DNA of 64,000 bases from Escherichia coli 042. Its GTDB lineage: Bacteria > Pseudomonadota > Gammaproteobacteria > Enterobacterales > Enterobacteriaceae. The notes under the pieces are model-generated. The model made no database searches and was not told where the DNA came from. It saw only the letters and a list, made by a program, of their open reading frames with translations. The number at the start of each line of letters is the position of its first letter. Within the stretch, counting starts at the first letter, position 1. This document shows, one piece after another, positions 55,995-59,298 of this stretch. Where the stretch lies: the NCBI RefSeq assembly GCF_000027125.1, contig NC_017626.1. One strand, 5' to 3'. The position numbers and the translations under genes are program-made.

Positions 55995-56828
55995 TTAACG
56001 CATATTCAGTTTATTGGCGTGGTAGGCAATATGCTCGCCAATAAAACTGGAGACAAAATAATAGCTGTGATCATAACCCTCGTGATAACGGATTAACGTC
56101 TTGATATTCATCTCCTGGCAGATCTTTTCAAGATTTGGAGTCCGCAGCTGTTCTGCGTAAAAATCATCACTCAACCCCTGATCAACCATTATTTCCGCAA
56201 CGCGTTGACCTTGTGAAATAAGGCTCACCGGATCGTAATCCAAGCACGCCTCTTTATTTTCACCAAGATATGCGGTAAAGGCTTGCTGTCCCCACGGTAC
56301 TTGCGATGGGGAGACAATGGGCGAAAACGCCGAGACGCTGACATATTCATCTGGGTTACGTAACGCCAGCACCAGTGCGCCCAGCCCGCCCATAGAATGA
56401 CCTGAGATAGACTTTCTGGCCGTTGCCGGAAAATGTTGCATCACTAAATCCGGCAGCTCGTTGTGGATATAATCATACATTTTGTAATGTTCATTCCACG
56501 GCGCTTGCGTTGCGTTCAGGTAAAACCCGGCACCTTGCCCGAGATCGTAACGGTCGGCATCTGCGACATGACTGCCTCGCGGACTGGTGTCTGGCGCAAC
56601 AACAATAATGTTGTGCTCAGCCGCGTAACGTTGCATCCCCGATTTAGTAATGAAATTCTGCTCGTTGCAAGTCAGCCCTGAAAGCCAGTACAACACCGGC
56701 AATTTTTCACTTGCGGCTTTTGGTGGGAGATAGACGCCGACATTCATTTCACATTTCAGTGATGGGGAATAATGCCGATACACATTTTGCCAGCCGCCAA
56801 AGCTGGCATGTTTTTCAATGAGTTCCAT
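55995..56828 (-). CDS. frmB: S-formylglutathione hydrolase
   Basis: 277-aa ORF, esterase-D family with GHSMGG nucleophile motif. Confidence 0.92.
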   Translation of the reverse strand: MELIEKHASFGGWQNVYRHYSPSLKCEMNVGVYLPPKAASEKLPVLYWLSGLTCNEQNFITKSGMQRYAAEHNIIVVAPDTSPRGSHVADADRYDLGQGAGFYLNATQAPWNEHYKMYDYIHNELPDLVMQHFPATARKSISGHSMGGLGALVLALRNPDEYVSVSAFSPIVSPSQVPWGQQAFTAYLGENKEACLDYDPVSLISQGQRVAEIMVDQGLSDDFYAEQLRTPNLEKICQEMNIKTLIRYHEGYDHSYYFVSSFIGEHIAYHANKLNMR

Positions 56829-56919: not shown

Positions 56920-58059
<1,140 letters not shown>

Positions 58060-58063
58060 TCAG

Positions 58064-58339
58064 CTATTTAAGATAGGCACGAACCAGTTCAATAGTGTCG
58101 TCAACGGATTGGCTGACTTCGCGGCTGTAGCAGTCATTTCGGTCAAACGTTTCCCGGATATGGCTTTCAAGCACTTCTGCCATCAGCCCGTTAGCCGCGC
58201 CCCGAACGGCAGCGATCTGTTGGAGTATGGCACGGCATTCGGCATCACCCTCCAGCGACCGTTCCAGAGCATCAATCTGCCCCCGAATACGACGAACTCG
58301 AGTAAGGACCTTTTTCTTCTCTTCCGGAGTACTGGGCAT
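58064..58339 (-). CDS. frmR: formaldehyde-responsive repressor (CsoR/RcnR family)
   Basis: ORF 58064..58360 begins at GTG; start set at ATG 58339 ([21 protein letters not shown], 91 aa). Confidence 0.9.
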
Positions 58340-58363
58340 TTCGCACCTCATCATCTGCACGCA

Positions 58364-58416
58364 ATATACTATAGGGGGGTATGCTATATGTCAATGCATA
58401 CCCCCCTATAGTATAT
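58364..58416. promoter_or_regulatory. perfect 21-bp inverted repeat in the frmRAB promoter, candidate FrmR operator
   Basis: atatactataggggggtatgc - 11 bp spacer - gcatacccccctatagtatat, 25 to 77 bp upstream of the frmR start. Confidence 0.7.
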
Positions 58417-58454
58417 AACACTGGAGAATAAAATTTATCCGGTGAATGTGGTCG

Positions 58455-58502
58455 GAAAACAAAGAGGAAAGGGGGGGGCTAATCGGCAGGGAAGGCCCCC
58501 CC
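58455..58502 (-). terminator. rho-independent terminator of yaiO
   Basis: on the reverse strand a G7 / C8 stem (ccggggggg...cccccccc) is followed by tttcctctttgtttt; 23 bp downstream of the yaiO stop. Confidence 0.6.
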
Positions 58503-58524: not shown

Positions 58525-59298
58525 TCAGAATTTCCAGGTCAGATGGGCTGCAAGTTGCAGACCGTTATAATCATCGGTTGGGGTGTCGTACCACACTTTA
58601 CCTGCCGTCAGCCCGAGATTAAGTTGCTCAGTCAGCGGTTGAATACGTTGCAGACTGACGCTCTTCATGCTGCCGTAGCGTGTTTCTGGCGTCCAGTCAT
58701 AGGTGTAAGCACCTGTTCCGCGGCTTAGCCATAGTTGCGTATAACCAGTGCCGCGCGGGTCATTCAGACGCACGGAAATCATATTGCTGTAACTACCACC
58801 TGCATCGCTGGAGTCATAATGGGTATAGCGATAGCTGGTGATCACCGGGCCAGTATAGAGGGATACGCCGCCTTGCCAGGCATCGACTTCGACATCATCG
58901 TAATATTTAGTGTAGCGATAACCGGTCGTGAAAAGCGTTTTTGGCAACAGTGCCAGGTTAATATCCTGACGAAAATCCTGGCGGGCAAAGACCGGCGTAT
59001 TATCCGCAAAGGCAATACCCGTTCGGGTTGTCAGCCAGTTATTCCATTTATACCAGACCGCACCCTGACCGCGAGTGGCATTGAAATGTTCAGTTTCATA
59101 ATCACGACGCCCCTGGGAAAGATTAAAAAGCAGCGTTGCGTTTTCAACTTTCGCCACCAGTTCAGCATACGCTAAATTACGGTTGCCATGATCGCCAGAA
59201 TAATCGGTAAAATCGTAGCCCGCGGTAATGGAAGTTAACCCGGCATAAGCGGGCAATGTGCTAAAAATTGCTGCCGCTAATAACGTCCGTTTTATCAT
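58525..59298 (-). CDS. yaiO: outer-membrane beta-barrel protein
   Basis: 257-aa ORF with signal peptide MIKRTLLAAAIFSTLPAYA and C-terminal ...HLTWKF. Confidence 0.88.
   Translation of the reverse strand: MIKRTLLAAAIFSTLPAYAGLTSITAGYDFTDYSGDHGNRNLAYAELVAKVENATLLFNLSQGRRDYETEHFNATRGQGAVWYKWNNWLTTRTGIAFADNTPVFARQDFRQDINLALLPKTLFTTGYRYTKYYDDVEVDAWQGGVSLYTGPVITSYRYTHYDSSDAGGSYSNMISVRLNDPRGTGYTQLWLSRGTGAYTYDWTPETRYGSMKSVSLQRIQPLTEQLNLGLTAGKVWYDTPTDDYNGLQLAAHLTWKF

Follow-up and report, generated by a model that had tools for sequence, protein, structure and literature searches.

The closest described system to the locus studied here is the frm promoter (Pfrm) of E. coli K-12. Denby et al. (2016; Sci Rep 6:38879, PMC5146963) described a "large inverted repeat" upstream of frmRAB as tandem type I FrmR sites, which have ATAC/GTAT flanks and 9-bp G/C-rich cores; the repeat was centred at -29. 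EcFrmR bound to Pfrm DNA with a Kd of ~220 nM by BLItz, vs. ~3600 nM for an unrelated control promoter, and formaldehyde dissociated the complex (PMC5146963). In the same report, in vitro transcription was repressed by EcFrmR and this repression was relieved by formaldehyde. Methylene bridges between Pro2 and Cys35 underlie the release, according to the literature. In Salmonella Typhimurium (frmRA; Osman et al. 2015, 2016; PMC4528141, PMC5016687), an orthologous regulator recognizes the same type of site: FrmR binds to a 33-bp promoter fragment with a C6 tract and a flanking T/A-rich inverted repeat, mutation of one T/A flank abolishes binding, and the interaction, followed by fluorescence anisotropy, is weakened by formaldehyde. 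Only a single C6-tract site, taking two tetramers, was described there, whereas E. coli has two sites in a larger palindrome. In a 2024 study (PMC11127321), insertion of ATACN9GTAT sites made the constitutive promoter J23100 repressible by FrmR; a frmR promoter shortened so as to keep both sites but not the upstream DNA reportedly lost repression. Given the latter result, both sites might be insufficient in the native context.

Two further systems are more distantly comparable. As cited in PMC5146963, E. coli RcnR (Iwig and Chivers 2009), a paralogous DUF156 protein, occupies tandem type I sites between rcnR and rcnA, each taking one tetramer and consisting of a G6 tract within an AT-rich inverted repeat (TACT-G6-N-AGTA). 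The RcnR operator differs from that of FrmR in its flank motif, in its core length and in its centre spacing (19 bp vs. 32 bp), and the effector is Ni/Co rather than formaldehyde. The operators of CsoR (Tan et al. 2014, PMC3902906) are likewise promoter-located pseudopalindromes with a G tract, to which tetrameric DUF156 repressors bind; however, they belong to copper-responsive regulons and have other flanks, and FrmR is only distantly related (E ~1e-6 to CsoR structures).

How does the present locus compare with these systems? The window, by which we mean the whole 64-kb stretch of DNA that was analysed, contains the same locus and the same element as E. coli K-12 Pfrm, differing from it in allelic detail only; the window carries fully perfect 21-bp arms. 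Besides matching the FrmR equivalog model from end to end (Table 1), the 91-residue product of frmR aligns with the PDB 5LBM chain over residues 1–91 (E 4e-55), and its translation has the sensing residues Pro2 and Cys35 (EGDAEC(35)R) as well as His60. Its score against the RcnR model was 68 bits, below the cutoff of 138. An upstream GTG start at 58360, which would yield a 98-residue open reading frame, was dropped: the 91-residue form fits the FrmR model in full and is also the RefSeq annotation. The frmR intergenic region was found in 5,415 of 5,426 complete E. coli genomes, nearly always as a single copy.

Table 1. Features of the frmR promoter region and the adjoining genes, in window coordinates.
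Feature	Coordinates	Strand	Remarks
Whole inverted repeat	58364..58416	none	Probable FrmR operator region overlapping the frmRAB core promoter; described in PMC5146963
frmR-proximal arm	58364..58384		ATATACTATAGGGGGGTATGC
frmR-distal arm	58396..58416		GCATACCCCCCTATAGTATAT
Spacer between the arms			TATATGTCAAT
G6 tract	58374..58379
C6 tract	58401..58406
frmR-distal FrmR site, ATAC-TATAGGGGG-GTAT	58398..58414	-	Within the distal arm; ends 3 nt upstream of the -35 hexamer
frmR-proximal FrmR site, ATAC-CCCCCTATA-GTAT	58366..58382	-	Within the proximal arm; overlies the -10 hexamer together with most of the promoter spacer
-35 hexamer, TTGACA	58389..58394	-	In the 11-bp spacer; 10/12 promoter match
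-10 hexamer, TAGTAT	58366..58371	-	17-nt spacer; in the proximal arm
Alternative -10 hexamer, TATAGT	58368..58373	-	15-nt spacer; in the proximal arm
Predicted transcription start region	58356..58361	-	3–8 nt downstream of the repeat
Shine-Dalgarno-like GAGGTG	58344..58349	-	5' of the frmR ATG; from sequence
frmR	58064..58339	-	91-aa DUF156 (CsoR/RcnR-family) repressor; NF008464 FrmR equivalog, 189 bits, cutoff 133, residues 1–91 of 91
frmA	56920..58029	-	S-(hydroxymethyl)glutathione dehydrogenase, co-transcribed target; TIGR02818, 743 bits
frmB	55995..56828	-	S-formylglutathione hydrolase, co-transcribed target; TIGR02821, 391 bits
yaiO	58525..59298	-	YaiO family outer membrane beta-barrel domain; TIGR04390, 184 bits, cutoff 32

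A repeat search of the window returned the element as two arms that are complementary at 21 of 21 positions and separated by 11 nt. Read on the frmR strand, the order is ATATACTATAGGGGGGTATGC-ATTGACATATA-GCATACCCCCCTATAGTATAT-TGCGTGCAGATGATGAGGTGCGAA-ATG, and 24 nt separate the end of the proximal arm from the frmR initiation codon (58339, minus strand). The initial annotation had reported a perfect 21-bp inverted repeat with an 11-bp gap and G6/C6 cores just upstream of frmR; its coordinates, its complementarity and its placement before a confirmed FrmR equivalog were all verified. That annotation had also deemed such a palindrome improbable by chance, and our simulations bear this out. A search for the full repeat pattern gave one hit in the window, compared with zero hits across 100 dinucleotide-preserving shuffles. 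Among perfect inverted repeats of the window with loops of up to 30 nt, this one is the longest, and the runners-up reach 11 bp; in 30 windows simulated with a second-order Markov model, perfect inverted repeats reached 12 bp at most. The element is not a dispersed repeat of the REP, MITE or IS-terminal type: it is present once in the window, and in E. coli genomes it occupies a median of one place and a maximum of two.

Each arm contains one complete match to ATAC-N9-GTAT, and these two are the only matches in the 64-kb window. The arm layout is ATAC-TATA-GGGGGG-TAT, i.e. the G6 tract is set between ATA and TAT inside ATAC...GTAT. The two sites lie in opposite orientations at a distance of 32 bp, whether measured start to start or centre to centre, or about three turns of the helix. 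Denby et al. give a centre-to-centre distance of 31 bp, compared to the 32 bp that we count. We compared the arms with the definition of a type I CsoR/RcnR-family operator taken from PMC5146963. Each arm has a G/C tract in the prescribed range (3–8 bp) flanked by an AT-rich inverted repeat. The operon whose promoter carries the sites encodes the cognate regulator; there they overlap the -35/-10 region 24–77 nt upstream of frmR, and the site is kept upstream of orthologous regulators, as detailed below.

TTGACA-17-TAGTAT on the frmR strand is the only sigma-70-like match between 58000 and 58700, with the -35 hexamer in the spacer and the -10 hexamer in the proximal arm. The position of the -10 hexamer led to the predicted start region given in Table 1, and a second estimate is in accord: because the centre of the repeat is at 58390 and Denby et al. 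centre it at -29 from their predicted start, +1 would fall at ~58361. The TTGAC core was unchanged and oriented toward frmR in all 90 metagenome contigs surveyed, and it was found in 38 of 65 orthologous promoters.

From these data, we consider it very probable that the repeat is the operator of an autoregulated frmRAB promoter, with one 17-bp type I site per arm. Each arm would present a CsoR/RcnR-family site, ATAC-N9-GTAT, in which the N9 consists of a G/C tract beside TATA. One FrmR tetramer would presumably sit on each site; bound at the distal site, 3 nt short of the -35 hexamer, and at the proximal site, over the -10 hexamer, FrmR would be expected to occlude RNA polymerase. The exact protein-DNA contacts are likewise inferred. 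Formaldehyde would cross-link Pro2 of one subunit to Cys35 of another, the DNA-binding face would be remodelled and FrmR released, and frmR, frmA and frmB would then be transcribed.

The initial annotation named the palindrome as the natural candidate for the FrmR operator. Placement of an FrmR operator in the frmR promoter agrees both with the published binding, formaldehyde release and in vitro repression (PMC5146963) and with the comparative footprint described below. A refinement is called for, in that two sites rather than a single dyad make up the operator, each arm holding one full 17-bp pseudo-palindromic site. Both the operator and the formaldehyde-inducible frmRAB promoter are already known from published work, and in this respect the element is an ordinary one; Pfrm is already in use as a biosensor part. 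A sort-seq analysis of Pfrm is reportedly the subject of Rohlhill et al. 2017 (ACS Synth Biol 6:1584). Within the literature examined here, we found no footprint of the E. coli promoter and no arm-by-arm mutagenesis; the word "footprint" occurs 0 times in PMC5146963.

As an independent test of the operator reading, we assembled a comparison set of 80 loci encoding FrmR relatives (52–100% identity). They span the gamma-, beta- and alphaproteobacteria, and include Enterobacterales, Aeromonas, Pasteurellaceae, Neisseriales, Burkholderiales, Xanthomonadales and many Rhizobiales. Of the 80 loci, 65 had an exact ATAC-N9-GTAT in the 120 nt that precede frmR, vs. an expectation of ~0.0015 per 120 nt; this expectation was derived from the remainder of the same 80 loci, where five matches turned up over 396,901 nt. 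From 59 distinct orthologous proximal sites, we derived the consensus ATAC-TCCCCTATA-GTAT, followed by AT; the proximal site of E. coli shares 16 of its 17 positions. In the alpha- and betaproteobacteria and the xanthomonads, most promoters carry only one site, and in 23 single-site loci, mostly from Rhizobiales, the site starts inside TTGACA (TTGACATAC...). Two sites, with a homologous distal copy, were observed in 18 of the 80 loci; the hosts are Escherichia, Pantoea, Edwardsiella, an Enterobacter sp., Providencia, Morganella, Serratia, Erwinia, Aeromonas, Deefgea and Paraburkholderia.

The two-site promoters are not uniform in their architecture. Among these species, the spacing between sites takes values of 23, 32, 33, 34 and 35 bp. 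In Erwinia endophytica, the sites at -79 and -46 relative to frmR flank TTGACC in direct orientation (ATACTGGGATATAGTAT, ATACTGGTGTATAGTAT); their N9 cores differ at two positions when aligned as direct copies vs. seven when aligned as inverted ones. This promoter is thus a natural test, and it shows that an frmR promoter can do without the large palindrome. The cores of the two sites in Deefgea and Paraburkholderia are unrelated in both orientations. The Citrobacter-type promoter was observed to have a distal element with a 10-nt core (ATAC-N10-GTAT).

These differences bear on a variant of the operator model, in which the sites are the same but the stoichiometry is not: one FrmR tetramer might bridge both sites with two faces, or the DNA might wrap around FrmR, bending the promoter. 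Bridging was raised by Denby et al. (PMC5146963), since the FrmR sites are ~31 bp apart, vs. 19 bp for RcnR. The loss of repression in the truncated promoter that retained both sites (PMC11127321) hints at a role for flanking DNA, and wrapping of DNA has been reported for RcnR (Iwig and Chivers 2009, cited in PMC5146963). However, the distance between the sites differs from one two-site species to another, most lineages rely on a single site for repression, and the single-site 33-bp Salmonella fragment already takes two tetramers (PMC4528141, PMC5016687). A search of the PDB returned no FrmR-DNA structure. On balance, we regard bridging or wrapping as an unlikely, though not a negligible, alternative to one tetramer per site.

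The sequence directly upstream of the distal site is itself well preserved. In an alignment, the flank at 58417–58440 (minus strand) reads TTATTCTC(C/T)A and is invariant across Escherichia, including E. albertii, and a similar TTTATTCTTAG is located 5' of the distal site in Edwardsiella-type promoters. This flank may contribute to repression, for example by DNA wrapping as proposed for RcnR.

Does selection act on the perfect symmetry of the E. coli repeat, or on the sites that it contains? The 53-bp sequence is identical in ~3,554 of 5,135 matching E. coli complete-genome records, and the same holds for 66 of 90 metagenome contigs. The variants seen most often in E. coli affect the two innermost arm positions, which are outside the 17-bp sites; they occur on one side only and are uncompensated. 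A C-to-A or similar inner-arm change is present in ~30% of E. coli genomes, including strain THB42-F2. E. albertii has three uncompensated differences in the repeat. In nine species with two inverted sites, we asked whether the arms covary; core mismatches averaged 1.67 within species vs. 2.11 between species, and 1,378 of 20,000 permutations reached the observed total, which is not significant. A selected stem was consequently rejected: arm complementarity within species is not significantly better than between them, and the natural variants are uncompensated.

Because most lineages have a single site, the Erwinia sites are direct and the E. coli variants are uncompensated, the functional unit is the 17-bp ATAC-N9-GTAT site rather than the stem, with the large-scale symmetry dispensable. 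The perfect 21-bp palindrome of E. coli would have come about incidentally, from two near-consensus copies in inverted orientation and two additional matching bases at each end and, judging from the sequence comparisons, is lineage-specific and dispensable. What the present analysis adds to the published description is thus modest: the conserved unit is a 17-bp site, with one copy in most proteobacterial frmR promoters and two mainly in enterobacteria. This unit is relevant to promoter engineering and to the question of how FrmR tetramers engage DNA.

Several rare E. coli promoters could serve as natural alleles for testing the requirements of the sites. Strain 1EC187 (L081) has TTGAAA rather than TTGACA as the -35 hexamer. 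In O145 RM12275-C1 (L084), the distal tract is G5, not G6, and there is a further inner-arm change; in 06-00048 (L091), GG is replaced by CA in the distal tract.

One E. coli genome has a more drastic rearrangement. In FJ_Ec_21 (L086, NZ_CP143627.1:3528725-3528897, corresponding to 58382–58398 of the window), an inversion affects the central 15 bp, made up of the spacer and 2 bp from the inner end of each arm, such that the region reads ...GGGGGGTAT-TCTATATGTCAATGC-ATACCCCCC... Reverse-complemented, its centre is identical to that of the common "GA" allele. Because the arms are identical, the flip yields a promoter of equal quality in the opposite direction: an equally good TTGACA-17-TAGTAT points away from frmR, and only a 9/12 match is left on the frmR strand. 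Conceivably, then, the palindrome could act as a tiny flip-flop in which inversion of an 11–15-bp core redirects the FrmR-controlled promoter antisense into the 3' end of yaiO and away from frmRAB; the -35 hexamer lies in the asymmetric spacer and a -10-like hexamer is found in both identical arms, which makes this arrangement possible in principle. If true, low-frequency flips in populations would cause heterogeneity in formaldehyde detoxification capacity.

The survey data argue against such a device. Two discriminating queries of 5,426 complete E. coli genomes returned no second flipped spacer (i.e. 1/5,426), and an orientation-anchored pattern found none in the 90 metagenome contigs. An apparent flipped candidate, H82, proved to be in the normal orientation on inspection. 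The locus does not resemble a fimS-like invertible promoter switch: the flip is a singleton, and the neighbours that were characterised are frmA, frmB and yaiO, none of which is a recombinase. An invertible core of 11–15 bp is also far shorter than those of known switches. We therefore read the FJ_Ec_21 allele as a one-off inversion or template-switch event via the inverted repeat, with an assembly error less likely, and not as a regulated switch; the flip-flop itself strikes us as exceedingly improbable.

The inverted spacer does require that the arms interacted with each other once, and as such it lends something to the view that DNA secondary structure is the functional entity, namely that a cruciform formed under negative supercoiling, or hairpins on the lagging strand, modulate the promoter or its recognition by FrmR. 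A single-stranded DNA fold of the 73-nt region also recovers the full 21-bp stem (-21.5 kcal/mol, z = -7.4). The corresponding RNA fold has the full stem as well (-45.2 kcal/mol, z = -5.6); folding of the full stem, whether as DNA or as RNA, is what any perfect palindrome would give. Against a functional cruciform, the most frequent variants of E. coli disrupt pairing in the inner stem on one side only, the three differences in E. albertii are uncompensated, arm complementarity is not significantly better within than between the nine two-site species, the Erwinia sites are direct and most lineages have one site. An 11-nt loop disfavours cruciform extrusion in vivo. The cruciform suggested in the initial annotation accordingly finds no support in the comparative data, which display neither compensation nor covariation, and we judge a role for DNA secondary structure to be very unlikely.

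Could the repeat act instead at the level of RNA? As a hairpin, it might be a stability or translation element of the frmR 5'-UTR, or a barrier to read-through from yaiO. The latter gene is on the same strand, meaning that read-through transcripts would carry the repeat. However, both promoter hexamers fall within the repeat, whose centre was placed at -29 (PMC5146963), so that the frmR transcript is predicted to start past it; with the predicted start downstream of 58364, frmR mRNA would include neither arm. No U-run follows the stem, the next sequence being TGCGTGCAG, and the terminator scan called no terminator. A separate terminator-like G8/C7 hairpin with a T-rich tract is positioned between yaiO and the repeat. 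A search of Rfam at a permissive E-value yielded only generic miRNA precursor matches of at most 27 bits, vs. gathering scores of at least 73, and membership in a known RNA family was rejected. Finally, the stem is without covariation. The suggestion of a 5'-UTR hairpin thus founders on the promoter hexamers inside the repeat, and a function as an RNA hairpin appears extremely remote compared to the preferred reading, a pair of FrmR sites in the core promoter.

The terminator-like hairpin between yaiO and the repeat merits description. At 58471–58502 (minus strand), just downstream of yaiO, there is an inverted repeat of G/C runs, GGGGGGGGCT / AGGCCCCCCC, with 10-nt arms that are 90% complementary and a 12-nt loop, followed by TTTCCTCTTTGTTTT. 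Its sequence has the look of a terminator for yaiO. With a loop longer than 8 nt it escaped the terminator scan, and its fold energy is ordinary for its composition (z = -0.5).

Examination of the comparison set also revealed two groups of unrelated hosts that share near-identical frmR promoters along with FrmR proteins of ~84–91% identity to the query. The first comprises an Edwardsiella anguillarum plasmid, an Enterobacter sp. and Morganella (L008, L010 and L018 as listed); the second comprises a Citrobacter freundii metagenome-assembled genome, Klebsiella grimontii and "Maribrevibacterium" (L006, L009 and L011 as listed). Such sharing suggests either a horizontally mobile frm operon or contamination.

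In seven loci from Xanthomonadales (L030, L034–L036, L053, L056 and L078), the upstream region ends in ATACTCCCCCCCACT right at the start of the tblastn match. Because ATACTCCCCCCCACT directly precedes the match, an operator-like element adjoins or overlaps the inferred frmR start in these species; either translation of frmR really starts at a codon further downstream, or its mRNA has almost no leader.
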